Part shown: piece after piece, positions 15,663 to 63,760 of the stretch
Layout: the number at the start of each line of letters is the position of its first letter
Numbering within the stretch: the first letter of the stretch is position 1
Source of the DNA: Spirochaetia bacterium
Lineage (GTDB): Bacteria > Spirochaetota > Spirochaetia > WTKD01 > G963693115
Assembly (NCBI GenBank): GCA_965218205.1
Contig: OZ244590.1
Location: 1,176,178 to 1,240,177 of the forward strand
Length of the DNA stretch: 64,000 nucleotides
Reading direction: 5' to 3'
Made by a program: the position numbers and the translations under genes
Notes under the pieces: model-generated
Seen by the model: the letters and a program-made list of their open reading frames with translations, nothing else
Databases searched by the model: none
What the model was told of the DNA's origin: nothing

Positions 15663-18600
15663 TTATGAAGTACATTCTGGATCATCTCTATCCTTTGGAA
15701 ACCAATCTGTTTTTTTTGCCATAGCTGAATTTTGGAAATCACCATTCTTTACTGATATTTTACAAATTTTCCACGAGGATAAATTTTGATTAAATTCAGA
15801 AGCGTTATAAAAGACAAAATTAAATCTTGTAACATTACCTACATTCCAACCTGATATATCCTTATCAAACTTACTTGCGTCTCTAAACATAAGATCCATA
15901 TTAGTAACCTTACGCGTATCCCAATCTCCTATATCTTTATTAAAAGCACGTGCTCTATTGAACATAGAACTCATATTAGTAACTTTGCTTACATCCCAAT
16001 CTCCTATATTTTTATTAAAAGCACTTTCTTGAAATAGAGCTTGCATATTCGTTACATTACTGGTATTCCACTGTGTTATATTTCCATTAAAAGTACTATC
16101 TTGATAAAATAAAGCATTCATATCAGTAATAGCACTGGTATCTATCATGTTGAGGTTGGGGCTAGGGTTGTTGTTACCTCCTGAACCTTGTCTTGTTTTT
16201 TCTGCAGTGATAATAGCTTGCAGTGCTGCTTTTGTTGTTGGTCTGTAATAGGTAGCTGATTGTCCTGCTAGTTTTACCAGCCCTGTCTCTACATTGATAG
16301 TCGCAAGTACCTTTTGTCCCGAGTTTGCTCCCGCAGAAGTAATGGTACACTCCACTACTCCATAGCTATACTCAGTTATAGCAGTATCATGTATGTTTGA
16401 TTTATTTGCTGTGCCTGCTATCGTTACTGTATTGGTATTTTTTGCAAATGTTACTGTTAAGCCTGTTTCTTGTTTGAGTGTGCTGTTATCTACTGTGCTT
16501 TCATCACAGGTAAATGATAGTCCACTAGGACTAATGCTGGTAAGTACTCTTGTTGTATGTGCTGATGTTGGTGCTGAGCCTACTGTTGCTGAAACTTTTG
16601 TAGCATTTCCTATCACTACTACTGGAGTGCTGGCAGAGACTGCTGTTGCTTCTGCTGATACCTTTGTCTTTTTGAGGCTGTTTACTGCTACTGCGGTGAT
16701 ATAGTACTTTGTATTCAATCGTAGGTTGCGTATTGTATAGCTTGTTGCTCCTGTTGGTACATCGTCTTTTTCTGCTCCTACTTGTGCATCGCTTGCTGCT
16801 TGTGCTTGTGTTTTTACTGTTGCTCCATTTATGCTTGTATTTGAGGCTATATAGTATACTTTGTAATCTATTTGATTATCTCTGAGAGTAGTTGTTCCGT
16901 CTTCTGTTGTTCCTTTCACGGTTGGGGCTGTTATGGTAAGTACTATGGTTGCTCCTTGTGCATTTGCTTGTATGGTGGGCTTTCCTGGTGCTCCATAGGC
17001 TTCTTTTGCGATAAACTCCTTGCGGACACCTCTTGATTCTTTGTTAGGATCGGTGCTGTTTACTGCTTGCACTACTATTTCGTAGCTTGTGCCTACTGTC
17101 ACACTGGTCAGAGTGCTGTTGGTTGTTCCTGCTGCTGTTGTTGTGGGGCTTCCTCCTGCTGCTATTATTATCTCTGCTATTGTCCTCTGTGAACTACCAT
17201 TTTTTGCTACTTTGTATACTTTGTACGATACTTGTGCTACTGCTAGGGTGTCTCCTGTGTCTGTTTTGTGGCTTGCAGTAAGGCTGGGGGCTGTCCACGA
17301 TAGCGTTGCATTCCTTCCTTCTACTCCTTTTACTTGTATGTTGCTTACTTCTGCGGGATCTGTTGCTTGTGATGCGGTTGTTACTGTTGCCACTGTCGAT
17401 ACTGCTTTTTTGCTTGGGTCTGTTTTTATGGCTACTTCTACTACAAAGTGATACTTTGTCGCTCCTTTTATTGCTACTGTTGGGGATGTCACGCCTAAAC
17501 TGCTAAGCGCTGGTACTGTGTACACTCCGTTCCTTGCACTGCCTATAGTTACTTTTCTGCCTTTTTGTACTTCTGCTACTGTTGGGGTTGTGTCTTTCTG
17601 TAAGCCGTACACTGTGTATACTAGCTCATCATTGCTGGTTACTGTTGTGCCGTCTTTGTTTTTTGCTCCTGTTATTGTGCTTAATTGTGTGAGTACTAGC
17701 TTTATTGTTCCTGTTGTGTTTGTTGATTGTGATACTACCAGCTTGTTTGCTAAGGACGAGGTAGGGGCTGTTGCTTTTGATCTGGGGATGGTGCTCAGTT
17801 CTAGTGTTTGTATCAGTGCTGGGTCCTTGCTTTGTGCTTTCTTTGTTGTAGAGGGGTTCAGGCTGTTTATTGCTTCTATGCCTATGGTGTATACTGCTCC
17901 TTTTGTTCCTATAAATGTTCCTCGTAAAGTGCTACTTCCTGCTATGTCTTGTGTTTGTACTCCTGTTATTGTTTTTATTTCGGCTATTGTTTTAGTACTC
18001 TGGTCTCCTGCTACTAGGTATACTTTGTACTGTATCTGTGCTTGTGTGAGTTTGCTGTCATTGGGTGCTTTGTGGTTGTCGGTAATTGTTCCTGCTTGAA
18101 ACTCGTACTGTACGGTATCGCTTGTTGCTGTTGATTCTGCAATAAGCAGAGTGAGGGTTTCTGGTGCGGGGGGGACAGTGGATATTGCATCATATACTGC
18201 TACTTTGTCAGTGAGTGTTGTTGGGGGGCTTACTCTGTTATTTTCTACTGTGAGAAAGCTAAAGCTATATTGTTTTGCATTGGCTTGTGTTGCTGATACT
18301 TCTATGCCATCTGCTATGCCAAAGCTAATGGTGGTAGCTATTCCTGTTATGCTTTTTTCTGCTATCAGTGTAGTGCTATCGTACATACGCAGGGTGTAGT
18401 ACTTATTTGATCCAGGTGCTTGCGTAAAGGTTGCTTTTATTTGTATTGCTCCTGTTGTTGTAACGAGGGCAGGCTTGCTTTGAAAGAGTTCTGCTGAGGG
18501 GGCTGTGAGTGGGGTGGGTGTTGTTATGTCTTGTGTTTTTGCATTGCTTTTGTTTTCTGCATAGTCTATTGCTTGTATTGTTACTGTGTATGTTTTGCCT

Positions 18601-20216
18601 TGACTGAGTGCTTCGACAGAGAGCGATGTTGTGGGATAGGGTATTTTTTTCTCGTTCAGTACTGTGGTAGTTGTGCCTTTCTCTTGTATGCTTATGCTGT
18701 ATTCTTTTATGTCTTTGTTCTTTGCTTTTGTTGCATCGGGTGCTGTCCATGTTATCTGTGTTGCTACTTTTGTTGCTGATACAAAGGGATAGCTTGCTTG
18801 TATGTTTGTTACTGGATCGGGATCGGTGCTATCTGCTCCTGTATCTACTGTTGCTGTTGCTTCTGTTCCTTTGTTGCCTGCACTGTCCATTGATACGACT
18901 GCCACTGTATACTCGGTGGTAGCTTTGAGGCCTGGTATCTGTGTGTTGCGTAGTGTTCTGTCTGTTATTGTTACTGTCTTTGCTGGAGTATCGCTCTCTT
19001 TCTCTGTTGCTGTTATAGTCACTCCTGCGTAGTCTCGTACATTGGGGGCTTGCCAGATGACTACTATGCTTGTTGCTCCTCCTACGGCACTTACATTGGT
19101 CGCGGGCTTTGTTGTTTTGTCGGTTGTTGCTTGTTCTTTTGACACTGCAGTGGAGTACTTTCCGTTTTGAGAGACATACACTTCTACTTTGTACGTAAGC
19201 GTGCCGTAGAGTTTTGTGAGTGCTATGCCATCTTTTGCGACATACACAGTGGCATATTCTTTTGTCTGTGCAGTTGCACTGCTGACATTGGTTGCACTGG
19301 TATCTTTGCTTATTGTCTCCTCTGCTACTATCGTCTGTGTTGCGGTTGCTGTTACTCGTACTAAGAGGCTTTTTGCTGTGTTGCCTGTTCCAAAGGCAAA
19401 GCTCCCCCACTTGATAAGCAGGCTTTCATCGGCAGGGCTATTGCTTTTATCGTTTGCTGTTACTGTAAGATTTGCCTCTGGTAGTGCTGCTACTGTTTGT
19501 GAGAGTGCTGATGCTTTTACGCCTGTCAGTACTGTTGTAGGACTGCTTGTGTTGTCATTTCTGTCTTTGTAGCGTATTTCTACATCATAGGATATGCCTG
19601 CAAGCGTAGAGATGTTTGGAAGCACAACCTCTCCTTGCTGTAGATTCTGCACGGTAGCTTGTGCAAGCACTGTGCCATCATTAGCCGTGCTTTTTACCAC
19701 TATTGTTGCTTCTGCTATGTCTGTCTTGCCTACTGCTAGTCGCTCTTTGTCCCATGTTATCTTTATGCCATCCCCCGACTTTTCTACTCCTACCTGTGTC
19801 AATGTGTCCTGTGGGGTAGTAGTATCTATCAGTGTTGTCACGGTGCGGGTTGTTTTTGGTGATACTTCTGTGTCCTTTTGGGCTTCAATCTCTACAGTGT
19901 AGTTAGTGAGTGCTTGCAAGCCTTTGAGTTTGTACGATTGTCCTTGTTGAAAGAGTGTTTGATATTCTATGGCAGGAACACGCACTTGTATTGATTGGGC
20001 TGGTGCGGTAGAGGTAGCGTTTACGACTACATGCGTGGCATCGCTTGGGGCTTGCCAGCGTAAAGCAAGCGTCCCATCATTGCCTGCTGGCTGTATCTGC
20101 ACATTGGACAGTGATGCAAGGGTCGGGGTTACCTGTTTCCCTCCCCCTCCGCCTGATGAGGAACTGCTACTGCCCTCCGAACATGCTACGAGTACGAGGG
20201 TAGTTATTGCTAGCAC
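15663..20216 (-). CDS. Giant surface lipoprotein, paralog 1. Multiple FN3/Ig-like repeats plus C-terminal DUF285 (BspA/mycoplasma-type) repeats. Body as called from GTG 20216; the true initiation is probably the ATG at 20314, currently out of frame (see the poly-G feature)
   Basis: 1517 aa. Lipobox LVAC, then a Ser/Gly linker. Repeated FN3-like endings (YTVTIQAIDYAENKS, EYTVAVVSMDSAGNKG). The C-terminal tandem motif ...MFxxAxxFNxDIGxWDVSxVTNM is typical of DUF285. The called GTG start leaves only 11 residues before the lipobox Cys, with no charged n-region. Confidence 0.85.
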   Translation of the reverse strand: MLAITTLVLVACSEGSSSSSSGGGGGKQVTPTLASLSNVQIQPAGNDGTLALRWQAPSDATHVVVNATSTAPAQSIQVRVPAIEYQTLFQQGQSYKLKGLQALTNYTVEIEAQKDTEVSPKTTRTVTTLIDTTTPQDTLTQVGVEKSGDGIKITWDKERLAVGKTDIAEATIVVKSTANDGTVLAQATVQNLQQGEVVLPNISTLAGISYDVEIRYKDRNDNTSSPTTVLTGVKASALSQTVAALPEANLTVTANDKSNSPADESLLIKWGSFAFGTGNTAKSLLVRVTATATQTIVAEETISKDTSATNVSSATAQTKEYATVYVAKDGIALTKLYGTLTYKVEVYVSQNGKYSTAVSKEQATTDKTTKPATNVSAVGGATSIVVIWQAPNVRDYAGVTITATEKESDTPAKTVTITDRTLRNTQIPGLKATTEYTVAVVSMDSAGNKGTEATATVDTGADSTDPDPVTNIQASYPFVSATKVATQITWTAPDATKAKNKDIKEYSISIQEKGTTTTVLNEKKIPYPTTSLSVEALSQGKTYTVTIQAIDYAENKSNAKTQDITTPTPLTAPSAELFQSKPALVTTTGAIQIKATFTQAPGSNKYYTLRMYDSTTLIAEKSITGIATTISFGIADGIEVSATQANAKQYSFSFLTVENNRVSPPTTLTDKVAVYDAISTVPPAPETLTLLIAESTATSDTVQYEFQAGTITDNHKAPNDSKLTQAQIQYKVYLVAGDQSTKTIAEIKTITGVQTQDIAGSSTLRGTFIGTKGAVYTIGIEAINSLNPSTTKKAQSKDPALIQTLELSTIPRSKATAPTSSLANKLVVSQSTNTTGTIKLVLTQLSTITGAKNKDGTTVTSNDELVYTVYGLQKDTTPTVAEVQKGRKVTIGSARNGVYTVPALSSLGVTSPTVAIKGATKYHFVVEVAIKTDPSKKAVSTVATVTTASQATDPAEVSNIQVKGVEGRNATLSWTAPSLTASHKTDTGDTLAVAQVSYKVYKVAKNGSSQRTIAEIIIAAGGSPTTTAAGTTNSTLTSVTVGTSYEIVVQAVNSTDPNKESRGVRKEFIAKEAYGAPGKPTIQANAQGATIVLTITAPTVKGTTEDGTTTLRDNQIDYKVYYIASNTSINGATVKTQAQAASDAQVGAEKDDVPTGATSYTIRNLRLNTKYYITAVAVNSLKKTKVSAEATAVSASTPVVVIGNATKVSATVGSAPTSAHTTRVLTSISPSGLSFTCDESTVDNSTLKQETGLTVTFAKNTNTVTIAGTANKSNIHDTAITEYSYGVVECTITSAGANSGQKVLATINVETGLVKLAGQSATYYRPTTKAALQAIITAEKTRQGSGGNNNPSPNLNMIDTSAITDMNALFYQDSTFNGNITQWNTSNVTNMQALFQESAFNKNIGDWDVSKVTNMSSMFNRARAFNKDIGDWDTRKVTNMDLMFRDASKFDKDISGWNVGNVTRFNFVFYNASEFNQNLSSWKICKISVKNGDFQNSAMAKKTDWFPKDRDDPECTS

Positions 20217-20290
20217 TAAAAACAGTGCAACGAGAGTTATGCTTTGCTTATATCGAGAGTGTACCCCCCCCCCCCCCCGATTTTTTTCAC
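16100..20290. repeat. Large direct repeat copy 1 (~4.2 kb, near-identical to 58760-62940)
   Basis: Block-by-block comparison of the two lipoprotein genes and their 5' ends. They diverge 3' of ~16100/58760 (DUF285 cassette) and 5' of the G tracts. Confidence 0.85.
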
Positions 20291-20314
20291 GCTTTGTAGA
20301 TCTCTATGTATCAT
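20237..20314 (-). other. Signal-peptide leader ORF of lipoprotein paralog 1 (ATG with AAGGAGG SD). It reads through a 15-nt G tract and terminates out of frame in the present sequence
   Basis: SD cctcct is at 20321-20326 (minus AGGAGG). ATG is at 20314..20312. The peptide MIHRDLQSVKKIGGGGG then goes +2 out of frame. With 16 or 13 G it continues VHSRYKQSITLVALFLVLAITTLVLVAC|SEG, a canonical lipoprotein signal peptide. Confidence 0.7.
20264..20278. repeat. Homopolymeric tract, C15 on the + strand (G15 on the coding strand) inside the lipoprotein signal-peptide coding region. Candidate slipped-strand phase-variation switch
   Basis: Counted directly: gta + 15 c + gattttttt. Confidence 0.9.
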
Positions 20315-20412: not shown

Positions 20413-23400
20413 CTATGATTTACATTCTTTACTATTTATGTCTTTTGGGTACTGTGTTGTTTTTCCTGCCATAGCTGAATTTGAGAAATCATAACTGCTA
20501 AGAAATACCTTACACAATCTCCATGATGATAAATCTTGATCAAATGCAGAGGCTTTCTCAAACGCAACAGCAAAACTATTAACATTCCTTACATTCCAAT
20601 TTCCTATGTCTTGATCAAAGATATTTGCTCTATTAAACATTGCAAACATATCCCTTACATTACTCACATTCCAATTTCCTATATCTTGATTAAAGGCACT
20701 TGCTCTCGTAAACATTGAAAACATACTCCTTACATTACTGGTATTCCACTGTGTTATATCTCCATTAAAGGTACTATCGTTATCAAATAAATTACTCATA
20801 TCAGTGATAGCACTGGTATCTATCATGTTGAGATTGGGACTATTGGTGTTTTGCCTCCTTGCTCCTCTTTCTGCACTGATAATAGCTTTAAGCTGCTTCT
20901 TTGTCGTTGGTCTGTAATAAGTAGGTGATGTCTCTCCTGATGGTGCTGCTTTTAGTCCTGTCTTTATGATAATGCTTGCTGGTACTCTTTTATTTGAAGC
21001 GGTAATTGTACACTGTACTACATCATAGCTATAGTTAGTAATAGCAAGATCATGCACATTAGATTTATTTGCTATGCCTGATATAGTAATTGTTTTACTA
21101 CTCTGTTCAAACTGTAGTGCTAAGCCTGTTTCTTCTTTAATTTTCTTGCTATCTCCTTCCCGTATATTAGCATCACAGGTAAATGCAACGCCACTGGGAC
21201 TGCTTACTAATCTTCTTGTACTATGTGCTGATCTTGGGGCTTTACCTACTTCTGCTGAAACCTCCATAGTGTTTCCTATAATCACTGCTGACATTTCAAA
21301 CTCATGTCGTTCTCCTGTTGATGTTTTTGTCGTATCGGTGCTGTTTACTGCTTGTACAACTATTTCGTAGGTTGTTCCGTTTATCAAGCCTGTCAGGGTA
21401 GTGTTGGTTGTTCCTGCTCCTACTGTTGTGGGGCTTGAGTCTGCTTGTTTTATCGCTGTCGCACTTCTTGCACTGCCACTCTTGGCAATACTGTATACCT
21501 TGTACGATACTTGTGCAGTAATTAAGGCATCCCCTGTATCTGCTTTGTGATTTGCACTGAGGCTAGGAGCTGTCCATGATACTCTCATGCCTATTGGGGT
21601 TGTTCTTGTTTGTATGTTTCTTACTTCTGCTGGAGCAGTCGCTAGCGATACGGTTATTATGCTTGCCACTGATGAAGATGCTACTTTCTTGCTAAGATCT
21701 GCTTTTATTGCTACCTCCAATACAAAGTGATACTTTGTCGCTCCTTTTATTGCTATCACTGGTGCAGTGTCTGAAGATAAGCCTAAACTCATCAAGGCTG
21801 GTACTGTGTACACTCCGCTACTTGCACTGCCTATGTTTACTTTTCTTCCTGCAAGCACTTCTGCTACTGTTGGTATTGTGTCTTTCTGTAAGCCGTACAC
21901 GGTGTACACAAGCTGTGCATCTGCTGTTATATCTTTGCCATCGTAGTCTTTTGCTCCCGTAAATGTGCTTAGCTGGGTGAGCCTCAGGTTTATTTTCCCT
22001 GCTGTGCTTGATTGTGACAGTACCAGCTTTCCTGTAAGCAATGATCTATTGGGTGCTACTGCCTTTGAAGTATAGACTTCCTTTATTTCCGTTATATCGG
22101 TGTAAAAGCCTGCAGGAAAGAGCCTGTCGCTATTTGATGCATCGTAATCGGGGGATGTTGTGTTTACTATCCTCACTCCTATATAGTAATCTTTTGCTGT
22201 TTCTATGGGTGTTGCTCCTGCATTGCTTCCACTGGTACTGTCTACTATTGGTATCTGTACAGTCGCTTGATTTGTCATTCCTGTTGCTTTTGTGTATTTT
22301 GCTACTCTCACTGCTACCTTTGAATGGCTTTTTTCTACTGCCCATAGGGCTGATACACTGTCAGGCTTTCCAGTGCTGTCTTCTTTCTTGAGATATAGCA
22401 CATAGTACGCAAGATCAGTTGCTTCAAGAGGAGTACCATCTGCTTTACGCATTCCTGCTATGGCTGAGGCATTTACCTGTACTGTTATGACTTTTTTTCC
22501 TGTATTGCCTCCTGTGCTAGGCACTGAAAATACTACTGCATTATTGCTAGTATATGTTGTTATTTTTGGTGTTGTTGGTGGAGGAGTGAGTGCTTTTGTT
22601 ATTATTGTTCCTGATGCTCCTATGCTATAGGCGGGACTGAGGCTGTTTATAGCTTCCACTCCTACAGTATAGGTTGCATCTCTTTTTCCTATAAATGATA
22701 CGCTGTACCTTGTAGTATTCTTTCCTGCTAGCTCCCGTATTTGTTTCTGTGTTTCTACTCCTGCAAGAGTTTTTATTACATCTATTGTTTTTGTGCTGTG
22801 ATCTCCTTCTGCTATGTACACTTTGTACTGTATCTGTGCCTGTGTAAGTTTGCTTCCATTAGGAGCTTTGTTGTCAGTAGTAATGTCGCCTGCACTAAAC
22901 TCATAGACTGCTGTTGCTGTTGTTTGTGTTGCTGACACTACAGAGAGCTTTGCATCCTTGGGAGCAGGTGGTGCAGTTGAAGTATCATCATATACTGCCA
23001 CTGTATCAGCAAGAGAGGTTATGAATCTTACTATATTATTTTCTATTTGCAGAAAGATAAAGCGATAGTCCTTCTTTGTTGCTTCTGTCTTGGGTACTTC
23101 TAAACCATCTGCTATACCAAAGCTAATGGTGGTATCTGTTCCTGTTATGCTCTTGTCTGCTATTGAGTTTTTGCTATAGCTAACAGTAGTGTCTGTTCCT
23201 GCTATGCTCTTGTCTGCTATTAAGTTTTTGCTATCGTACATAAGCAGGGTATAATATCGTCCTACGCCAGGAGCTGTCTTAAAGGTTGCTTTTATTTGTA
23301 CTGCTCCTGTTTTGTCTAAGCTAGGTTTATTTTGAAATATATCTTCTGATGGGACTGTAGGTTTAGGAGGGGGGTTTAAGGGAGGCTTAGGAGTCTGTAT

Positions 23401-23514
23401 ATCTGTGGTAGTTACTGTTTCTGTACATCCTAGCACAAAAAGCGTAGCCACTACTAGCATCCATGCCAGCGTAACTGTAATTATTCTTTGTAAAATCAAG
23501 GTGCACCTCCTCAA
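20413..23514 (-). CDS. Giant surface lipoprotein, paralog 2. It lacks the first ~570 aa of paralog 1, has no G tract, and carries its own C-terminal DUF285 cassette
   Basis: 1033 aa. Lipobox FVLGC. Colinear with paralog 1 from ...QNKPSLDKTGAVQIKATF onward. The ORF-track start is TTG at 23514. A second TTG at 23499 sits 6 nt after GAGGAGG and is the likelier start (MILQRIITVTLAWMLVVATLFVLGC). An in-frame TGA lies 3 codons upstream. Confidence 0.8.
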   Translation of the reverse strand: MRRCTLILQRIITVTLAWMLVVATLFVLGCTETVTTTDIQTPKPPLNPPPKPTVPSEDIFQNKPSLDKTGAVQIKATFKTAPGVGRYYTLLMYDSKNLIADKSIAGTDTTVSYSKNSIADKSITGTDTTISFGIADGLEVPKTEATKKDYRFIFLQIENNIVRFITSLADTVAVYDDTSTAPPAPKDAKLSVVSATQTTATAVYEFSAGDITTDNKAPNGSKLTQAQIQYKVYIAEGDHSTKTIDVIKTLAGVETQKQIRELAGKNTTRYSVSFIGKRDATYTVGVEAINSLSPAYSIGASGTIITKALTPPPTTPKITTYTSNNAVVFSVPSTGGNTGKKVITVQVNASAIAGMRKADGTPLEATDLAYYVLYLKKEDSTGKPDSVSALWAVEKSHSKVAVRVAKYTKATGMTNQATVQIPIVDSTSGSNAGATPIETAKDYYIGVRIVNTTSPDYDASNSDRLFPAGFYTDITEIKEVYTSKAVAPNRSLLTGKLVLSQSSTAGKINLRLTQLSTFTGAKDYDGKDITADAQLVYTVYGLQKDTIPTVAEVLAGRKVNIGSASSGVYTVPALMSLGLSSDTAPVIAIKGATKYHFVLEVAIKADLSKKVASSSVASIITVSLATAPAEVRNIQTRTTPIGMRVSWTAPSLSANHKADTGDALITAQVSYKVYSIAKSGSARSATAIKQADSSPTTVGAGTTNTTLTGLINGTTYEIVVQAVNSTDTTKTSTGERHEFEMSAVIIGNTMEVSAEVGKAPRSAHSTRRLVSSPSGVAFTCDANIREGDSKKIKEETGLALQFEQSSKTITISGIANKSNVHDLAITNYSYDVVQCTITASNKRVPASIIIKTGLKAAPSGETSPTYYRPTTKKQLKAIISAERGARRQNTNSPNLNMIDTSAITDMSNLFDNDSTFNGDITQWNTSNVRSMFSMFTRASAFNQDIGNWNVSNVRDMFAMFNRANIFDQDIGNWNVRNVNSFAVAFEKASAFDQDLSSWRLCKVFLSSYDFSNSAMAGKTTQYPKDINSKECKS
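23132..23245. repeat. 57-bp x2 tandem duplication inside paralog 2. It encodes a repeated 19-aa unit (…ADKSIAGTDTTVSYSKNS / …ADKSITGTDTTISFGIAD) that is single-copy in paralogs 1 and 3
   Basis: Unit 23132-23188 against 23189-23245, ~90% identical. Confidence 0.7.
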
Positions 23515-47674: not shown

Positions 47675-50158
47675 TTATAGCTTAAATGTTAAGTATAGTG
47701 AAAATTCAAGATATTTCGTAAAACTATTAGCATCAATGTTATATGTATATTCTCTTCCATCAATATCTTTATCTGATGCTCCTTCTGTCTTATCATCTTT
47801 TATATCTCTCTTAAATGTTAAGAAAGCAAGCAAATTACCTAAGGCAAAACGATAGTTAAAGGTGAGAAATTTATTATCCACAAACACCCCTGTAAAAGAA
47901 GGCACTAAGGTCATCACGGGAATGTACTCTCTTGCTGAATTAATTTCTCTTTCTTGCCTGATGAGATTTCCTTTATCATCTTTTACTACTTCGTTAGGAG
48001 TAAATGGTTTGTCTATTGCAAAAGAACTAGACAGTGCAAAAGTAAACACTTCATGGGGGCTTACTGAGTATTTCATTCCAATAGTATGACGTGTATCATC
48101 ATTAGATGGTAACCACTCATTGTCTTTTGTATAGAAATAAGAAAATCCTAGTGTATAGGAAAGCTCAAATGTTTGAATATTTTTACTATACTTCCAACGA
48201 GTGGTTGCTCCAGTACCATAGCCATAATTTACAGGCTTATATGCGTAGTTTCGAGTAGCATCTGTATCTCTATATCTAAACTGACTAAATATTCCATGAA
48301 AATTATAGTACCAGCCAAAATACGGAGTAAGCGATAACTGATGATTTCCAAGTTCAATAAGGTATTTTGTAGAGGCCATAATGCCATAATTAGGATCTGT
48401 ATACGATGTTTTGCTGTCTGTATACTCTACTGTTTTTTCTAACACCTTTCTGTCTATGTACTGCAATTTTTCTAAAAAAGCAGGACTCCATCCTAATGAA
48501 AAAGAAATAGTGTGTATATCAGAAAAAGTGGTAGCATACTCACTTCGAAGCGAAGGATACAAAGAGCTAGCTGATTGAGCAACCCATGATACGCCTGGAC
48601 TTATAGAAAATTTAACATCTCCCCTATCAAAATAATCTTCATAGTCATATTGACCGTATAGATATAATCGTAAATAATCTTCGTTTATTGTAATGTTTTT
48701 ATCTTGATTTTCTTTATTTGTAGGACTACTTACATTAGCATATGTATAAGTATCTCCATAGCTAGCATCTAGGACAGAATACTCAACACTAGAGCCTGCA
48801 CTCACTATATGCTTATCAGTTAATGCCCATGAAAAAGAATCATTCAACGCAGAGTACCATACTTTTGATGTTCCATCATAATCGTAGCCAATAGTTCCCT
48901 TCGTCTCTCCTCTTTCTTTTAAGCGTTTTATAGCATCATCTGAGAGTTTTTTTAATGTATATTGCGAATTTAATGAGACTACAGAATAGTATGAAATAAT
49001 ATCTATAACATGTAAACCTCTATCTGCAACTACTTTTCGCCATTGCACTCCTCCTCCAAAAAAGTAGGGAAAATCTTGCTTTTCTCCTTCAAACGGATTG
49101 TCTTGCGAAGTATTTTTTACATCCAGCTGTACTATATCATAGTAGGCAAGCCCCAGTACTTTTACTACATCATTTTGATTTTTATAGGTAAAAGACAAGA
49201 AATAATCCCCATATGTATACCAATCAACATTTATGTCACTATCATCAGTAGCTAACACTTCAATAAGTGGAATTAGAGTATACCTCTCAATAGATTGCCG
49301 TGCTATCGCAAATAATGTTGCATTCTTTCCTATTGTCTGCCTATACCCAATATAAGGGGCAGTGGCACTCAACCCTAACATGAGACGATTATTCTGTACA
49401 TCCTTAGGATATGCAATTACTGTTCCTCCAAGTGATTGTCCATACCTTCCAGGAGGAGGTCCCTTGATGGTCTTAATAGATCCCACCGTTTCCTTAGAGA
49501 TAATAGGCTGGCTACTATTAGAATAATGTGCATTAGTCGGAACAGGCAAAAAATCAACATAGTTCTGATTCCATGCACTGTCTCCTCCAAACACAGAATA
49601 ACTTGTTCCTAATGTAAAAAATGAATTTGTACCAGGCTCTAGGATTCTCGCCATAGAAGCATTTCCTATATCATCTTGCATCACTCCTGCTTCAGAGGTA
49701 ATAATACTAAAAGGGTCACCTCGTTCAAGGGAGGCATTTTCTACCTCAGATTCCCCGTATTCTGTAATGTTTGGCTCTTGTTGTATATCTCTGTCTGCAG
49801 TAACTATTATCTCCTCTTCTACTAACTCAGCCTGTGAAGATTGCTCCACTACAATCTCAAATACTGTTGGATTAGCACTGGTATCTTGTCCTGCATTAAC
49901 ACTAAAAGAAAAATCAGCTTCATCAGCAGCAAGAGTGATAACTTTAAGCGTATATTCACCTGGCTCTACATCAAAAAAAGCAAAATTACCCTCTTCATCA
50001 CTTAGTTCAATGATGTCTAACTCAACGAGTATGACTGTTGCCTCAACAACAGGTTCATCATTTTGTATAATACTCCCATAATAATCTTCAGAAAATACAG
50101 TAATGCTTCCTACTATTAATAAGAAACATACAAACATGCTTAATTTCTTATATACCAT
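47675..50158 (-). CDS. TonB-dependent outer-membrane receptor with N-terminal carboxypeptidase-regulatory-like domain
   Basis: 827 aa. Signal peptide. The beta-sandwich-like N-terminal domain (VEATVILVELDIIELSDEEGNFAFFDVEPGEYTLKV) is followed by a TonB-box/plug start EEEIIVTADRD. Long Tyr/Gly-rich beta-barrel region. Divergent from the exbB-exbD-tonB cluster. Confidence 0.65.
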   Translation of the reverse strand: MVYKKLSMFVCFLLIVGSITVFSEDYYGSIIQNDEPVVEATVILVELDIIELSDEEGNFAFFDVEPGEYTLKVITLAADEADFSFSVNAGQDTSANPTVFEIVVEQSSQAELVEEEIIVTADRDIQQEPNITEYGESEVENASLERGDPFSIITSEAGVMQDDIGNASMARILEPGTNSFFTLGTSYSVFGGDSAWNQNYVDFLPVPTNAHYSNSSQPIISKETVGSIKTIKGPPPGRYGQSLGGTVIAYPKDVQNNRLMLGLSATAPYIGYRQTIGKNATLFAIARQSIERYTLIPLIEVLATDDSDINVDWYTYGDYFLSFTYKNQNDVVKVLGLAYYDIVQLDVKNTSQDNPFEGEKQDFPYFFGGGVQWRKVVADRGLHVIDIISYYSVVSLNSQYTLKKLSDDAIKRLKERGETKGTIGYDYDGTSKVWYSALNDSFSWALTDKHIVSAGSSVEYSVLDASYGDTYTYANVSSPTNKENQDKNITINEDYLRLYLYGQYDYEDYFDRGDVKFSISPGVSWVAQSASSLYPSLRSEYATTFSDIHTISFSLGWSPAFLEKLQYIDRKVLEKTVEYTDSKTSYTDPNYGIMASTKYLIELGNHQLSLTPYFGWYYNFHGIFSQFRYRDTDATRNYAYKPVNYGYGTGATTRWKYSKNIQTFELSYTLGFSYFYTKDNEWLPSNDDTRHTIGMKYSVSPHEVFTFALSSSFAIDKPFTPNEVVKDDKGNLIRQEREINSAREYIPVMTLVPSFTGVFVDNKFLTFNYRFALGNLLAFLTFKRDIKDDKTEGASDKDIDGREYTYNIDANSFTKYLEFSLYLTFKL

Positions 50159-50283: not shown

Positions 50284-50299
50284 AAAAAAAAAAAAAAAA
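50284..50299. repeat. Homopolymeric A16 tract in the divergent intergenic/promoter region
   Basis: Counted directly: tag + 16 a + tagcct. Confidence 0.85.
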
Positions 50300-50349: not shown

Positions 50350-50444
50350 AAAAAACTAATTACTATACCATTTTAGTAAAATATGCCTTTCACTTGACAC
50401 ATAAAGTACGCTTTTACTGATAACTATACAATAGTACGAGAATA
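50350..50444. repeat. Direct repeat A (~95 bp) upstream of the IS remnant. A duplicate of the exbB promoter region with an 11-bp insertion
   Basis: Matches 51402-51486 except for an extra ataaagtacgc (50401-50411) placed between the TTGACA and the downstream -10-like hexamer. Confidence 0.85.
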
Positions 50445-50463
50445 CAAAGAGAAGCCGAAAGCT

Positions 50464-51373
50464 ATGCTCTATGATAGGCGTCCTGCTTCAGTAGAACATC
50501 CTAATACCATGATACCTTACTATCAGTTAAAACTCAAAGAGATATGCGAAACATTACAGCACTATCATCAACGATGTATTGCCTCTCATATACAACGAGA
50601 GTATGCCATTCCTTATTCCATAAAGACTATCATTAAGCATCTGAGAAAGATGGGGTTTTTTAAGACACATAAAAAGCGAAAAGCAGAAAAGAAACAAGAG
50701 GCTCGCCTATGGAAACAACTGCTGCAGTTTTGTCAAAAAATACAAGTAGATATTAAATATCTTACCGATATCCCTGAATTATACTTCTCATTACGCAAGT
50801 TTTGCCTCCCAAAGTATCAAATTACCGCACGCGATGTCGCAACAGGGGCTTTATGGATATGCTTTGCTACTCAAAAAAGCTCTTCTCATACCGCTTTGTT
50901 TATTGAATATCTGCTTACTCATCTTGCTTCTTTTCACGTTGATACTTCCTCTATTACTATTCAAACTGTTGATAATGGCTCTGAGTTTATCTCAGGGGCT
51001 TTTAGTACTAAACAGTCTGCTTTTGTTGCTTCTCTTGCAGCATACGAGGCACACCATACTACTATCCCATATGCTTCTCCTACTTACAATTCTGATGTCG
51101 AGGCTTCTCATAAACTTATTGAAACTGAATGCTATGCAAAAATGCAGAATCCCTACTCTCAGTACTTTTTTACTCAAAAGTGCTGAGTATCAATATAGCT
51201 TTAATCATCAACGCCATAACTCTTATAAACACGGCTCTCCTGCTTTGTTGCTCAAAGAAAAAAGTCCTTCTCTGGATCCTTGTGTACTTACTCTGCGACC
51301 TCTTATTGTTGATACTTTCCTTACTAAACGAACATTACACACTTGGCATAATAGAAATTTTGCAGTATACTGA
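50464..51373 (+). pseudogene. IS481-family (rve/DDE integrase-core) transposase remnant. N-terminally truncated and frameshifted
   Basis: Frame 1 (50464..51186) carries catalytic D (QVDIKYLTD), D (TVDNGSEF) and E (PTYNSDVEASHKLIETE). The C-terminal hallmark ...FNHQRHNSYKHGSPALL (YNxxRPHxxL-like) lies in another frame (ORF 50834..51373). The HTH N-terminal ~100 aa is absent. Confidence 0.75.
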
Positions 51374-51401
51374 TTTTATCAAAAGGGTTCACACGAAACG
51401 G

Positions 51402-51486
51402 TTAAAACTCCAAAAAACTAATTACTATACCATTTTAGTAAAATATGCCTTTCACTTGACACTTTTTACTGATAACTATACAATAG
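51402..51486. repeat. Direct repeat B (~85 bp). The native exbB promoter region
   Basis: See repeat A. Confidence 0.85.
51446..51474 (+). promoter_or_regulatory. Sigma70-like promoter TTGACA-N17-TACAAT for exbB-exbD-exbD-tonB
   Basis: TTGACA at 51446-51451. TACAAT at 51469-51474. exbB ATG at 51544 with SD aggag. Confidence 0.55.
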
Positions 51487-58313: not shown

Positions 58314-61300
58314 CTATGATGAAGGACATGCTGTTTTATCAGTACTGTCCTTTGGGTACTGTGATGTTTTTCCATACATAGCTGAACCAGAAAAAGTACT
58401 TAAAATTATTGTTGCTTTACATAATCTCCACGATGATAAATCTTGATCAAATTTACGAGCATTTTTAAATGTATGGTATACATTAGTAACACTCTGTACA
58501 TCCCAATCTCCTATGTCTTGATTAAAAGCAGAAGCTCTATTGAACATACTATTCATACCAATAACCTTACTCATATCCCAATCTCCTATATCTTGATTAA
58601 AAGCAGAAGCTAAAGTAAACATATTAACCACATTAGTAACCTTACCTACATCCCAATTTCCTATATCTTGATTAAAGACAGTAGCAGAATCAAACATAGC
58701 ACCCATATCCGTTACATTACTGGTATTCCATTTTGTAATATCTCCATTAAATGTACTATCATTAAAAAATAAATCACTCATATCAGTAATAGCACTGGTG
58801 TCTATCATGTTGAGGTTGGGGCTAGGGTTGTTGTTCCCTCCCGAACCTTGCCTTGTTTTTTCTGCAGTGATAATAGCTTGCAATGCTGACTTTGTTGTTG
58901 GTCTGTAATAGCTCGCTGATTGTCCTGCTAGTTTCACCAGCCCTGTCTCTACATTGATAGTCGCAAGTACCTTTTGTCCCGAGTTTGCTCCCGCAGTAAT
59001 GGTACATTCCACTACTCCATAGCTATATTCAGTTATAGCAGTATCATGTATGTTTGATTTATTTGCTGTGCCTGTTATCGTTACTGTATTGGTATTTTTT
59101 GCAAATGTTACTGTTAGGCCTGTTTCTTGTTTGAGGGTGCTGTTATCGTTATCTATTGTGCTTTCATCACAGGTAAAGGTAAGCCCACTAGGACTAATGC
59201 TGGTAAGTACTCTCGTTGTATGTGCTGATGTTGGTGTTGATCCTACTGTTGCTGAAACCTTTGTGGCATTTCCTATTACTACTGTTGGGGTGCTGGCAGA
59301 GACTGCTGTTGCTTCTGCTGATATTTTTGTCTTTTTGAGGCTGTTTACTGCTACTGCGGTGATATAGTACTTTGTATTCAATCGTAGGTTGCGTATTGTA
59401 TAGCTTGTTGCTCCTGTTGGCACATCGTCTTTTTCTGCTCCTACTTGTGCATCGCTTGCTGCTTGTGCCCGTGTTTTTATTGTTGCTCCATTTATGTTTG
59501 TATTTGAGGCTATATAGTATACTTTGTAGTCTATTTGATTATCTCTGAGATGAGTTGTTCCGTCTTCTGCTGTTCCTTTTACGGTTGGGGCTGTTATGGT
59601 AAGTACTATGGTAGCTCCTTGTGCATTTGCTTGTATGGTGGGCTTTCCTGGTGCTGCATAGGCTTCTTTTGCTACAAACTCCTTGCGGATACCTGTTGAT
59701 TCTTTGTTGGGATCGGTGCTGTTTACTGCTTGCACTACTATTTCGTAGCTTGTGCCTACTGTCACACTGGTCAGAGTGCTGTTGGTTGTTCCTGCTGCTG
59801 TTGTTGTGGGGCTTCCTCCTGATGCTATTATTATCTCTGCTATTGTCCTCTGTGTACTGCCACTTTTTGCTACTTTGTATACTTTGTACGATACTTGTGC
59901 TACTGCTAGGGTATCGCCTGTGTCTGTTGTGTGGCTTGCAGTAAGGCTGGGGGCTGTCCACGATAGCTTTGCATTCCTTCCTTCTACTCCTTTTACTTGT
60001 ATGTTGCTTACTTCTGCGGGATCTGTTGCTAGTGATGCGGTTGTTACTGTTGCCACTGTCGATACTGCTTTTTTGCTTGGATCTGTTTTTATGGCTACTT
60101 CTACTACAAAGTGATACTTTGTTGCTCCTTTTATTGCTACTGCTGAGGATGTCACGCCTATACTGCTAAGGGCTGGTACTGTGTACACTCCGTTCCTTGC
60201 TGTGCCTATGCTTACTCTTCTGCCTCTTTGTACTTCTGCTACTGTTGGGGTTGTGTCTTTTTGTAAGCCGTACACTGTGTACACTAGCTCATCATTGCTG
60301 GTTACTGTTGTGCCATCTTTGTTTTTTGCTCCTGTTATTGTGCTTAATTGCGTGAGTACTAGCTTTATTGTTCCTGTTGTGTTTGTTGACTGTGATACTA
60401 CTAGCTTGCCTGTTAAGGACGAGTTAGGGGCTGTTGCTTTTGATCTGGGGATGGTGCTGAGTGCTAGTGTTTGTATCAGTGCGGGGTCTTTGCTTTGTGC
60501 TTTCTTTGTTGTAAAGGGGTTCAGGTTGTTTATTGCTTCTATGCCTATGGTGTATTCTGCTCCTTTTGTTCCTATAAATGTTCCTCGTAAAGTGCTGTTT
60601 CCTGCTATATCTTGTATTTGTACTCCTGTCATTGCTTTTATTTCTGCTATTGTTTTAGTACTCTGGTCTCCTGCTACTATGTATACTTTGTACTGTATGT
60701 TTGCTTGTGTGAGTTTGCTGTCATTGGGTGCTTTGTGGTTGTCGGTAATTGTTCCTGCTTGAAACTCGTACTGTACGGTATCGCTTGTTGCTGTTGATTC
60801 TGCAATAAGCAGAGTGAGGCTTTCTGGTGCGGGAGGGACAGTGGATATTGCATCGTATACTGCTACTTTGTCTGTGAGTGTTGTTGGGGGGCTTACTCTG
60901 TTATTTTCTACTGTGAGAAAGCGAAAGCTATATTGTTTTGCATTTGCTTGTGTTGCTGATACTTCTATGCCATCTGCTATGCCAAAGCTAATGGTGGTTG
61001 CGGTACTTGTTATGCTTTTTTCTGCTACCAGTGTAGTGCTATCGTACATACGCAGGGTGTAGTACTTATTTGATCCAGGTGCTTGCGTAAAGGTTGCTTT
61101 TATTTGTATTGCTCCTGTTGTAACGAGGGCGGGCTTGCTTTGAAAGAGTTCTGCTGAGGGTGCTGTAAGCTGAGAGGGAGTGGTTATGTCTTTTGGGGTT
61201 GATGTGCTTTTGTTGCCTGCATAGTCTATTGCTTGTATTGTTACTGTGTATGTTTTTCCTTGACTGAGTTCTTCGACAGAGAGCGATGTTGTGGGATAGG

Positions 61301-62873
61301 CTATTTTCTGCTCGTTCAGTACTGCAGTACTTGTGCCTTGCTCTTGTATGCTTATGCTGTATTCTTTTATGTCTTTGTTCTTGGCTTTTGTTGCATCGGG
61401 GGCTGTCCATGTTATCTGTGTTGCTACTTTTGTTGCTGATACAAAGGGATAGCTTGCTTGTATGTTTGTTACTGGATCGGGTGCTGTGCTATCTGCTCCT
61501 GTATCTACTGTGGTTGTTGCTTCTGTTCCTTTGTTGCCTGCATAGTCCATTGATACGACTGCCACTGTGTACTCGGTGGTGGCTTTGAGGCCTGGTATCT
61601 GCGTGTTGCGTACTGTTCTGTCTGTTATTGTTACTGTCTTTGCTGCTGTTGGGCTATCTTTTTCTGTTGCTGTTATGGTCACTCCTGCGTAGTCTCGTAC
61701 ATTGGGCTCTTGCCAGCTTACTACTATGCTTGTTGCTCCTCCTACGGCACTTACATTGCTTACGGGCTTTGTTGTTTTGTCGGTTGTTGCTAATTCTTTT
61801 GACACTGCAGTGGAGTACTTTCCGTTTTGAGAGACATACACTTCTACTTTGTAGCTAAGTGTACCGTAGAGTTTTGTGAGTGCTATGCCATCTTTTGCGA
61901 CATACACAGTGGCGTATTCTTTGTTTTGTGCGGTTGCTCCGCTGACATTGGTTGCACTTGTATCTTTGCTTATTGTCTCCTCTGCTACTACTGTGTTTGT
62001 TGCGGTTGCTGTTACTCGTACTAAGAGGCTTTTTGCTGTACTGCCTGTTCCAAAGGTAAAGTTTCCCCACTTGATAAGCAGGCTTTCATCGGCAGGGCTA
62101 TTGTCTTTATCGTTTGCTGTTACTGTAAGTTCTGCCTCTGGTAGTGGCGTTACTGTTTGTGAGAGTGCTGATGCTTGCACACCAGTCAGTACTGTTGTAG
62201 GACTGCTTGTGTTGTCATTTCTGTCTTTGTAGCGTATTTCTACATCATAGGATATGCCTGCAAGCGTGGAGATGTTTGGAAGCGTAACTTCCCCTTGTTG
62301 TAGGTTCTGTACGGTAGCTTGTGCAAGCACTGTGCCACCAGTTGTGCTTTTTACCACTATCGTTGCTTCTGCTATGTCTGTCTTGCCTACTGCAAGTCGT
62401 TCTTTGTCCCATGTTATCTTTATGCCATCACCTGATTTTTCTACGCCTACTTGTGTCAATGTGTCTTGTGGGGTAGTAGTATCTATCAGTGTTGTCACAG
62501 TGCGGGTTGTTTTTGGTGATACTTCCGTGTTTTTCTGGGCTTCTATCTCTACAGTGTAGTTAGTAAGTGCTTGTAAGCCTTTGAGTTTATACGATTGTCC
62601 TTGTTGAAACAATGCACGATATTCTATGGCAGGAACACGCACTTGTATTGATTGGGCTGGCGTTGTAGATGTAGCTTTTACTACTACATGTGTGGCATCA
62701 CTGGGAGCTTGCCAGCGTAATGAGAGTGTCCCATCATTGCCTGCTGGTTGTATCTGCACATTGGACAGTGATGCAAGTGTCGGGGTTACTGGTGAAGTTC
62801 CTCCTCCGCCTGATGAGGAACTGCTACTGCCCTCCGAACATCCTACGAGTACGAGGGTAACTATTGCTAGCAC
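58314..62873 (-). CDS. Giant surface lipoprotein, paralog 3 (near-identical to paralog 1 over ~4.2 kb, with a different C-terminal DUF285 cassette). Body as called from GTG 62873. The probable true start ATG 62967 is out of frame across a G14 tract
   Basis: 1519 aa. Lipobox LVGC. FN3-like repeats identical in order to paralog 1. The C-terminus carries one more DUF285 unit and a distinct tail (...KDSTDKTACPSS). Confidence 0.85.
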   Translation of the reverse strand: MLAIVTLVLVGCSEGSSSSSSGGGGTSPVTPTLASLSNVQIQPAGNDGTLSLRWQAPSDATHVVVKATSTTPAQSIQVRVPAIEYRALFQQGQSYKLKGLQALTNYTVEIEAQKNTEVSPKTTRTVTTLIDTTTPQDTLTQVGVEKSGDGIKITWDKERLAVGKTDIAEATIVVKSTTGGTVLAQATVQNLQQGEVTLPNISTLAGISYDVEIRYKDRNDNTSSPTTVLTGVQASALSQTVTPLPEAELTVTANDKDNSPADESLLIKWGNFTFGTGSTAKSLLVRVTATATNTVVAEETISKDTSATNVSGATAQNKEYATVYVAKDGIALTKLYGTLSYKVEVYVSQNGKYSTAVSKELATTDKTTKPVSNVSAVGGATSIVVSWQEPNVRDYAGVTITATEKDSPTAAKTVTITDRTVRNTQIPGLKATTEYTVAVVSMDYAGNKGTEATTTVDTGADSTAPDPVTNIQASYPFVSATKVATQITWTAPDATKAKNKDIKEYSISIQEQGTSTAVLNEQKIAYPTTSLSVEELSQGKTYTVTIQAIDYAGNKSTSTPKDITTPSQLTAPSAELFQSKPALVTTGAIQIKATFTQAPGSNKYYTLRMYDSTTLVAEKSITSTATTISFGIADGIEVSATQANAKQYSFRFLTVENNRVSPPTTLTDKVAVYDAISTVPPAPESLTLLIAESTATSDTVQYEFQAGTITDNHKAPNDSKLTQANIQYKVYIVAGDQSTKTIAEIKAMTGVQIQDIAGNSTLRGTFIGTKGAEYTIGIEAINNLNPFTTKKAQSKDPALIQTLALSTIPRSKATAPNSSLTGKLVVSQSTNTTGTIKLVLTQLSTITGAKNKDGTTVTSNDELVYTVYGLQKDTTPTVAEVQRGRRVSIGTARNGVYTVPALSSIGVTSSAVAIKGATKYHFVVEVAIKTDPSKKAVSTVATVTTASLATDPAEVSNIQVKGVEGRNAKLSWTAPSLTASHTTDTGDTLAVAQVSYKVYKVAKSGSTQRTIAEIIIASGGSPTTTAAGTTNSTLTSVTVGTSYEIVVQAVNSTDPNKESTGIRKEFVAKEAYAAPGKPTIQANAQGATIVLTITAPTVKGTAEDGTTHLRDNQIDYKVYYIASNTNINGATIKTRAQAASDAQVGAEKDDVPTGATSYTIRNLRLNTKYYITAVAVNSLKKTKISAEATAVSASTPTVVIGNATKVSATVGSTPTSAHTTRVLTSISPSGLTFTCDESTIDNDNSTLKQETGLTVTFAKNTNTVTITGTANKSNIHDTAITEYSYGVVECTITAGANSGQKVLATINVETGLVKLAGQSASYYRPTTKSALQAIITAEKTRQGSGGNNNPSPNLNMIDTSAITDMSDLFFNDSTFNGDITKWNTSNVTDMGAMFDSATVFNQDIGNWDVGKVTNVVNMFTLASAFNQDIGDWDMSKVIGMNSMFNRASAFNQDIGDWDVQSVTNVYHTFKNARKFDQDLSSWRLCKATIILSTFSGSAMYGKTSQYPKDSTDKTACPSS

Positions 62874-62940
62874 TAAAAACAGTGCAACGAGAGTTATGCT
62901 TTGCTTATATCGAGAGTGTACCCCCCCCCCCCCCGATTTT
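58760..62940. repeat. Large direct repeat copy 2 (~4.2 kb)
   Basis: See copy 1. Confidence 0.85.
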
Positions 62941-62967
62941 TTTGATGCTACTTATTCTTTCGTCCAT
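62905..62967 (-). other. Signal-peptide leader ORF of paralog 3 (SD aaaggaga, ATG 62967). Out of frame after a G14 tract
   Basis: MDERISSIKKIGGGG then out of frame. With 13 or 16 G it reads on as ...VHSRYKQSITLVALFLVLAIVTLVLVGC|SEG. Confidence 0.7.
62921..62934. repeat. Homopolymeric tract C14 (+ strand), G14 on the coding strand, inside the paralog 3 signal-peptide region
   Basis: Counted directly: gagtgta + 14 c + gattttttt. Confidence 0.9.
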
Positions 62968-63061
62968 ATACATCTCCTTTTATTATTATGTATTATATCA
63001 TGTTTATTATAACACAACATACTATTATTGTGTTACTCTATTATAGCAAAAAATATATAGC

Positions 63062-63760
63062 TTATTTTAATTCTAAGTAGCGATAAATATCTTTTACTGA
63101 TTGAATAAAATGAATACTTTTATACTTCTTGTGTTGTTGAATACTAAAAGGTGAAGAAAATATCAAACACTTCATATTTGCCTGCAAAGCACCATACCCA
63201 TCATAAAATATATGATTCCCGATATATAAGCATTCATCATTTGCAACTCCTAATTGTGTAGCTGCTGTATCAAATAAAAAACGATGAGGCTTAAAATACC
63301 CATATTGCTCAGAAGAAATAACGCTTTGAAAATAAGGAAGCAGCTGCCAGTTTTGTAGCTTATCATATGCCATAAAATCAGAGATAATACCGAGTTTATA
63401 ATTATGGTGATAGAGATCACCTATGAGTGTACGCATTCCCATGCGAAGCGGTGTTCTTTTTAAGCCATTTATCCACATATGTTTTATTCTGTGTTCTAAT
63501 ATATACTCCGATAAACATTTTGATGCACCAGTCTGCTCAATAAATAATTCAAGAGAGAGTTTTTCAAAAAACTCTTGATTTGTTTCATTATTATTTTCTA
63601 GTGTTTTACGTAATTTTCTTCGCATACAATAATAATGGTATATCCATTTAGAAGAGAACATATAACGAAACGGAGCACACAATAACATTACTGTATTGGA
63701 ATAGAGAGTATTGTCAATATCAAATATAATTGCCTTAAAGCGACTAGAATTTTTTATCAT
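63062..63760 (-). CDS. HAD-superfamily hydrolase
   Basis: N-terminal motif I FDIDNTLY (DxDxT). 232 aa. Confidence 0.7.
   Translation of the reverse strand: MIKNSSRFKAIIFDIDNTLYSNTVMLLCAPFRYMFSSKWIYHYYCMRRKLRKTLENNNETNQEFFEKLSLELFIEQTGASKCLSEYILEHRIKHMWINGLKRTPLRMGMRTLIGDLYHHNYKLGIISDFMAYDKLQNWQLLPYFQSVISSEQYGYFKPHRFLFDTAATQLGVANDECLYIGNHIFYDGYGALQANMKCLIFSSPFSIQQHKKYKSIHFIQSVKDIYRYLELK

Follow-up and report, generated by a model that had tools for sequence, protein, structure and literature searches.

Why should a run of 14 consecutive G residues lie between the start codon and the signal peptide of a large gene, leaving the two in different reading frames? The question is raised by paralog 3, one of three related genes on the minus strand of the window, by which we mean the whole 64,000-nucleotide stretch of DNA analysed here. 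In our reading, which we consider probable, the tract acts as a simple-sequence contingency switch, with translational phase variation by slipped-strand mispairing gating the expression of a large surface lipoprotein.

A G tract separates the leader of paralog 3 from its signal peptide

In the assembly, the homopolymer is exactly 14 G long (62934..62921, minus strand). Upstream of it, we read a Shine–Dalgarno (SD) sequence, AAAGGAG (62974..62980, minus strand), followed six bases downstream by an ATG (62967..62965) and a leader of 11 codons, MDERISSIKKI. As assembled, the leader frame (62905..62967) reads MDERISSIKKIGGGGGTLSI*, that is, MDERISSIKKI, five glycines and TLSI, and terminates at TAA 62907..62905; this short peptide would be the OFF-state product. 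The long frame opens at the last G of the tract (GTA 62921..62919), reads VHSRYKQSITLVALFLVLAIVTLVLVGCSEG..., alias VHSRYKQSITLVALFLVLAIVTLVLVGCSEGSSSSSSGGGG..., and continues for 1,535 codons from the tract with no stop until 58314. It leads into ...VHSRYKQSITLVALFLVLAIVTLVLVGC|SEG one base off from the leader frame, and a tract of 13 or 16 G joins both. The original prediction, which had described the G14, the SD, ATG 62967 and the leader of paralog 3 and had placed the gene one base out of frame, is borne out by the sequence and by this frame reading.

The tract thus has the anatomy of a homopolymer contingency locus, for which an uninterrupted run of about 7 nt or more within a coding region is expected: it falls within the stretch from the ATG to the signal-peptide core, it determines the frame by its length, and the OFF frames run into stops after 5 and 8 codons. 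A scan of the long frame for ATG, GTG or TTG after the upstream stop found GTG 62873 as the first candidate start, which lacks an SD and sits midway through the hydrophobic core. Since no such codon precedes it, a complete signal peptide is available only from ATG 62967; a role of the G run itself as an SD for a downstream start was ruled out for the same reason.

Together with the G15 of paralog 1, the G14 accounts for all G/C runs of at least 9 in the 64-kb window, whose G+C content is about 35%; none appeared in 100 dinucleotide-preserving shuffles of the window. A preference for glycine does not explain the run, as the four consecutive glycines in the linker of the mature protein use mixed codons (ggc gga gga gga) and GGG makes up just 18% of the glycine codons in six housekeeping genes, so the pure G run is a feature at the nucleotide level. 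The segment 3' of the tract is coding, because paralogs that lack the tract start translation of its n-region homologue, ...SK(Q/Y)(N/S)(L/I)T..., at an ordinary ATG.

Further upstream there is an extended -10-like box, TGcTATAAT (63040..63048, minus strand), read from the sequence and by pattern scan, which is the likely promoter of paralog 3. The pattern scan returned two further TGnTATAAT boxes, at about 63014 and 63000 on the same strand. A sigma-70 scanner (TTGACA/TATAAT) called no minus-strand promoter upstream of either tract in the window; it missed the TGcTATAAT box because there is no -35 match. We nevertheless favour the TGnTATAAT boxes as the likely promoter over the scanner result on grounds of conservation, the promoter block being about 93% identical in the syntenic locus L041 of a related genome.

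At the RNA level, an Rfam search of the window gave no match. With its G-quadruplex option, ViennaRNA predicts for the window tracts a two-layer quadruplex in the mRNA at 11 G or more and a three-layer quadruplex at 15 G or more, the latter adding, in this model, about 27 kcal/mol of stability over the quadruplex-free fold.

The tract precedes a large predicted lipoprotein

Downstream of the tract, the +1 frame encodes the remainder of a signal peptide (62838..62921, minus strand), composed of the charged n-region VHSRYKQS, the h-region ITLVALFLVLAIVTLV and the lipobox L-V-G-C, the Cys codon of which is located at 62840..62838. Read by rule rather than by a predictor, the segment ...KKIGGGGVHSRYKQS / ITLVALFLVLAIVTLV / LVGC|S conforms to a lipoprotein signal with a charged n-region, a hydrophobic core and a lipobox of the form [LVI][ASTVI][GAS]C. 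In the joined product, the n-region carries the charges KK, R and K, the core spans about 20 residues, and LVGC is followed by a Ser/Gly linker.

The mature protein of about 1,507 aa (58314..62837, minus strand) would start with this linker, followed by at least five Fn3 domains and a C-terminal DUF285 repeat domain, and its ORF is intact. Both domains were assigned with Pfam: fn3 matches over five stretches (E=1.1e-24, 86.9 bits), and DUF285 (PF03382) at E=7.8e-55, with 184.2 bits against a gathering cut-off of 25.

The other two paralogs of the window

Paralog 1 carries a G15 tract (20264..20278, minus strand) at the equivalent position of the gene. It is out of frame as assembled and ON at 13 or 16 G. 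Its leader MIHRDLQSVKKI, starting at ATG 20314, differs from that of paralog 3, and the assembled leader ORF (20237..20314, minus strand) reads MIHRDLQSVKKIGGGGGYTLDISKA*. The main frame (15663..20264, minus strand) encodes a signal peptide with the lipobox LVAC, and then Fn3 and DUF285 domains. Both window copies are open over their full length: the ORFs behind the OFF tracts of paralogs 3 and 1 measure 1,535 and 1,533 codons from the tract, or 1,519 and 1,517 aa from the first internal GTG. The two paralogs thus stand as originally predicted, with G15 and G14 and both out of frame, and the OFF call hangs on the single-base accuracy of a homopolymer of 14–15 nt.

Paralog 2 (20413..23514, minus strand; 1,033 aa, Fn3 and DUF285) has no tract. 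In its place stands GAGGAGGTG (23512..23504), which in alignment corresponds to the 3' half of the G tract, and an in-frame TTG (23499), 4 nt past GAGGAGGTG, opens the normal lipoprotein signal peptide LILQRIITVTLAWMLVVATLFVLGC. The position of the ancestral leader ATG reads ACA. Paralog 2 may therefore be a decayed and fixed version of the switch, in which the tract seems to have turned into an SD-like sequence that would lock the gene ON.

The same arrangement recurs at 20 loci in three genomes

Used as a protein query, the reconstructed ON N-terminus of paralog 3 retrieved P0001 (84% identity over the 355-residue query and 86% from residue 57), the called N-terminus of which, MNDSYKSKELYSVKKIGGGGGVHSQYKQNLTLVALFLVLAILILVGCSEG, holds a leader, five glycines and a signal peptide in one ORF. 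The corresponding DNA (L006) carries G16, and the called protein reads MNDSYKSKELYSVKKIGGGGGVHSQYKQNL...LVGCSEG. Among species-representative genomes, 37 paralogous loci were located, every one in the metagenome-assembled genome (MAG) CBDDCA01 ('Spirochaetia bacterium'; 6 contigs, about 2.25 Mb). A G tract occupies the same position in 14 of these 37, with lengths of 14, 11, 12, 9, 16, 15, 14, 15, 15, 13, 15, 14, 15 and 14.

The family is narrow, as an exhaustive HMMER search of a 1.84-billion-protein library yielded six clusters only at E<1e-30, but this search added three tract-bearing members. One of them, P0009/L042, belongs to the same MAG, adjoins FlaA flagellar-sheath genes and has a G15 in frame, reading MIRNNITRKMGGGGGKLSF...LIACTD. 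The other two, from ENA ERZ25073789, are out of frame: L043 has G13, the leader MSKMQSIMKT and the lipobox LLAC, and L044 has G15, the leader MSEIQEPVRNI and the lipobox FFSC. In all, the arrangement of leader, poly-G and signal peptide is present at 20 loci in three genomes, comprising the two of the window, 16 in CBDDCA01 and two in ERZ25073789. All 20 tracts are uninterrupted G, ranging from G9 to G16, with lengths of 9, 11, 12, 13, 14, 15 and 16 at the 18 loci beyond the window. Three of the 20 are in frame, namely L006 (G16), L020 (G13) and L042 (G15). Length polymorphism with ON and OFF alleles is therefore seen among related copies, between paralogs and species and not within one locus.

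In the proteins of L043 and L044, which measure 1,809 and 3,330 aa, the C-terminal domains are a Kelch beta-propeller and LRR_5, not DUF285. This composition suggests a modular family, in which a conserved N-terminal module of leader, poly-G, signal peptide and first Fn3-like domains is combined with exchangeable C-terminal domains.

The frame logic is conserved as well. All 16 loci scored by script have an SD-proximal ATG, and the distance from this ATG to the tract is a multiple of 3 in every one, across nine leader lengths from 30 to 72 nt. At these loci, the A run 5' of the tract is A4 or A7, and in 15 of the 16 the two wrong frames meet a stop after 5 and 8 codons. The genes behind the OFF tracts are intact rather than decaying, in both window copies and in 11 of the 12 OFF loci of the MAG that were checked; these 11 remain open for more than 1,330 codons, up to the end of the DNA examined. 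Among the relatives, two have an interrupted tract; in one of these, L031 (interrupted tract CGGGGTATGGGAGAT), the leader frame continues directly into that of the signal peptide, MKKWMDKELQSVKKNRGMGDKPQYRQNIT..., so leader and signal peptide form one ORF. These data agree with the earlier statement of divergent leaders combined with a conserved tract and signal peptide. They also support the proposal of a hypermutable switch rather than a lone artefact, with 18 further loci, both ON and OFF lengths and intact ORFs, from which we infer the switching itself.

When the window was compared with the 37 MAG loci, flanking synteny was limited to L041 and an IS fragment. The HAD-hydrolase neighbour of paralog 3 (63062..63760) has its orthologue at the extreme end of MAG contig_5, adjoining the syntenic copy L041, which shares the promoter and 5'UTR of the window (about 93% nucleotide identity), has a different leader (MKKWMNDSYQNDKLQAVKI) and a G14, and then runs into the contig end. 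This only syntenic pair has G14 on both sides and is uninformative either way on length variation. A pattern of tract plus flanks, AAAATYG9N{0,9}TACACTCT, had no match in JGI metagenome contigs, and a protein-pattern scan of JGI metagenomes found no relatives of the family.

The 5' ends are mosaic when window 62842-63075 is aligned with L041 8686-8942 and L023 2880-3110: the window leader matches the non-syntenic MAG paralog L023, whereas the promoter and 5'UTR match the syntenic L041. The breakpoints fall on the SD and on the conserved tract block, a pattern suggestive of gene conversion between 5' ends within the family.

A putative switch and its alternatives

The architecture described above enables us to propose a putative model for the expression of paralog 3. 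Transcription would presumably start from the conserved TGnTATAAT promoter, and ribosomes would initiate at the SD-proximal ATG 62967 and translate the 11-codon leader before entering the G run. With 13 or 16 G, four or five glycines would follow, and then the n-region, the hydrophobic core and the lipobox LVGC in frame. The ON product would be exported, lipidated and cleaved by signal peptidase II, which would remove the leader and the glycines with the signal peptide; changes of three bases would thus spare the mature protein. At other lengths, such as the assembled 14, translation would stop 5 or 8 codons later and yield no exportable protein. During replication, slipped-strand mispairing would add or remove G residues at high frequency, and as each tract would slip separately, the members of the family would flip on and off independently and reversibly. 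The outcome would be a population with mixed surface repertoires.

Could the tract be real, yet have a true length of 13 or 16, so that the gene is ON and the frameshift is a homopolymer miscall? Homopolymers of 14–16 bases are error-prone on every sequencing platform, and a one-base error would flip the ON/OFF call of the window tracts. The related genomes are low-coverage assemblies whose contig names carry 8.4-12.5x and follow a style that presumably comes from a long-read metagenome assembler; tract lengths are therefore possibly off by one, and the ON/OFF calls in these genomes are soft. The gene of P0001 moreover has an extra frameshift outside any homopolymer, which hints at an imperfect consensus. 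However, a range of 9 to 16 G between near-identical flanks far exceeds a one-base error, and every remainder modulo 3 is represented among the tracts. The long housekeeping ORFs of the window (ClpA, 795 aa; MutS2, 835 aa; V-ATPase A, 608 aa) are intact, which indicates that its consensus is generally good. We thus consider a pure length artefact unlikely, and even were paralog 3 ON, its tract would still be a mutable frame-setter. The number of ON copies, 3 of 20 against 6.7 expected at random (one third), does not differ significantly from chance (P = 0.06) and is sensitive to one-base errors; it could reflect genes or repertoires that are mostly silent, or systematic miscalling.

An OFF tract might also be leaky, with RNA-polymerase slippage or ribosomal frameshifting partly restoring the frame, so that the tract tunes the level of expression instead of acting as a binary switch. 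Long homopolymers are indeed known slippage sites. Ribosomal shifting has also been raised for the G10 of the Mycoplasma agalactiae P48-like gene, as protein was detected from the out-of-frame gene (PMC2824730). In the present family, however, the required shift varies from +1 at some loci to -1 at others, which disfavours a dedicated programmed frameshift site with one fixed shift direction, and no stimulatory structure was found, the RNA fold of the 5' region being no better than that of shuffles (z = -0.8). A programmed frameshift or transcriptional slippage site was rejected on these two counts, with low-level slippage possible. Leakiness as the main role of the tract is in our view quite improbable, and it would be compatible with DNA-level switching as the main mechanism rather than a replacement for it.

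The out-of-frame copies could instead be silent pseudogenes or archival cassettes that serve as recombination donors, with the tract as a leftover or a recombination junction. The majority of copies are OFF, their 5' ends are mosaic (promoter and 5'UTR with L041, leader with L023), and the mycoplasma DUF285 'drp' genes have been proposed as a sequence reservoir (PMC2824730). Against this, each OFF copy retains its own SD, ATG, in-frame leader, complete signal peptide and lipobox, most have a promoter-like box, and the ORFs are intact across 1,300-1,500 codons. Silent cassettes usually come without an SD, ATG, leader, signal peptide or promoter, and we regard this explanation as highly improbable.

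The extra frameshift of P0001/L006 (L001 ~11540-11584) lies about 510 codons into the gene, leaves ORFs of 527 and 956 aa, and results from an extra G outside any homopolymer; it marks either a real pseudogene or a consensus error.

Comparison with known phase-variable systems

A translational contingency switch of the kind proposed here has several precedents. In Neisseria pilC, where the G/C run lies in the signal-peptide region, and in Campylobacter and Helicobacter, intragenic 5' poly-G/C tracts in surface-structure genes bring about translational ON/OFF switching by slippage. Those loci are unrelated to the present genes and usually single or scattered, whereas here a paralog family has expanded with a conserved leader-tract-signal-peptide module.

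A parallel in layout is offered by the Neisseria opa family, which has about a dozen copies or fewer; the MAG, a single genome of 2.25 Mb, has at least 16 copies with a tract. In opa, CTCTT repeats lie in the leader-peptide coding region, and their number sets the frame by slipped-strand mispairing (PMC3960869). Both are multigene families of surface proteins in which the region coding for the cleaved leader contains a separate repeat tract in every copy, each copy with a promoter of its own, and in-frame changes leave the mature protein unaffected. Unlike the pentameric opa unit, the repeat here is a homopolymer; the Opa proteins are unrelated beta-barrel outer-membrane proteins, and the present host is a spirochete.

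Among lipoproteins, M. agalactiae P48-like (MAGa1620) and M. bovis P68 have a 5' poly-G at which the gain or loss of one G restores the signal peptide and lipobox, and the length of which varies between strains from G8 to G10 (PMC2824730). In M. agalactiae, there are other 5' poly-G tracts of up to 13 G, as well as a DUF285 lipoprotein family named drp (PMC2824730). As in P48-like and P68, the poly-G of our family lies in the 5' coding region of a lipoprotein gene. However, the proteins are not homologous; the mycoplasma drp family alone shares DUF285, and a poly-G switch is unreported for drp (PMC2824730). The present tracts are also longer (mostly 13-16), are found systematically across one family, and belong to a diderm spirochete.

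A spirochete with poly-G at surface protein genes is already known in Treponema pallidum, in which the poly-G tracts of tprE/G/J, tprL and tp0126, of 7-12 bases, vary within strains, and such tracts are associated with genes of outer-membrane or surface proteins (PMC7864442). The characterised tracts there are located in promoters and act on transcription (PMC7864442), whereas the present tracts follow an SD and ATG and set the frame. Since the T. pallidum genome has 53% G+C against about 35% here, G runs are less exceptional in that species. A promoter-type poly-G like that of tpr was rejected for paralog 3, as its tract lies 33 nt downstream of the SD-proximal ATG and the frame logic is conserved. 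What is new is thus the lineage, the gene family and the scale; the mechanism itself is textbook and introduces no new principle.

Poly-T tracts suggest a second class of switch

Among the 37 close MAG paralogs, a poly-T tract of T14-T27 is present in 19 of the 23 copies that have no poly-G, and in none of the 14 poly-G copies. These tracts are located at about 2817-2870 in each of the loci L007, L009, L010, L015-L019, L022, L024-L030, L032, L033 and L036; L039 has a shorter run of about T8 at about 1510. The poly-T is flanked by a conserved module of about 65 nt on its upstream side and by the core promoter on its downstream side, and its end is 24-43 nt, mostly 33-36 nt, from the -10 box. 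The divergent member L042 carries both tracts, T17 and G15. The poly-T may represent a second, transcriptional class of homopolymer switch.

It is conceivable, and we put it forward tentatively, as somewhat short of an even prospect, that the window shows a small part of a two-tier variation system spread over the whole genome in an uncultured clade of treponeme-like spirochetes, with G9-G16 tracts acting on translation and T14-T27 tracts on transcription. Such a system would comprise large Fn3 surface lipoproteins, about 40 or more in number, that end in DUF285 or Kelch/LRR domains, and nearly every gene would carry one of the two hypermutable homopolymers. The poly-T would work as a transcriptional switch or rheostat, the two kinds of tract being mutually exclusive among the 37 close paralogs, and tracts of 15 G or more may add an mRNA G-quadruplex effect, as far as the ViennaRNA model goes. 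The resulting combinatorial surface repertoire would be on the scale of the Mycoplasma or Neisseria systems.

A T16 in the window (50284-50299, minus strand) lies 45 nt upstream of a TGtTATAAT box and precedes the ORF 47675-50158 on the same strand. This ORF encodes a protein of 827 aa with an N-terminal CarboxypepD_reg domain (weak Pfam match), which resembles a TonB-dependent receptor; it is unrelated to the lipoprotein family, but the layout is that of the family's poly-T promoters.

Genomic setting and significance

The genes of the window include a V-type ATPase and TonB/ExbB, and FlaA, TP_0070 and TP_0929 Pfam families lie beside the relatives of the family; this gene content fits a treponeme-like spirochete. 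Standard gene callers start paralog 3 at the internal GTG 62873 and lose most of the signal peptide. As a result of such internal-GTG starts, a whole surface lipoprotein family would be mis-annotated and its regulation missed.

With at least 16 poly-G genes and about 19 poly-T genes in one genome, an unusually large share of 2.3 Mb would be given to stochastic surface variation if the tracts switch, which would in turn suggest that host immunity, phages or predators exert a strong and fluctuating selection. The family offers a natural comparison with poly-G switching in Treponema pallidum and with the DUF285 lipoprotein families of mycoplasmas.

Two further observations concern the surroundings of the paralogs. 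An IS481-family transposase in the window (50442-51412) is split over the overlapping plus-strand ORFs 50464-51186 and 50834-51373, and is 93% identical in nucleotides to a MAG copy beside the truncated family member L037. The paralog bodies (window 16001-20000 and 60001-62000) have a G+C of 0.42-0.45 against about 0.33 nearby and an AT skew of -0.44 to -0.49, and contain many long spurious antisense ORFs, for example 60181-60762; this shift in composition probably stems from coding sequence rich in Thr, Ala, Ser and Val.
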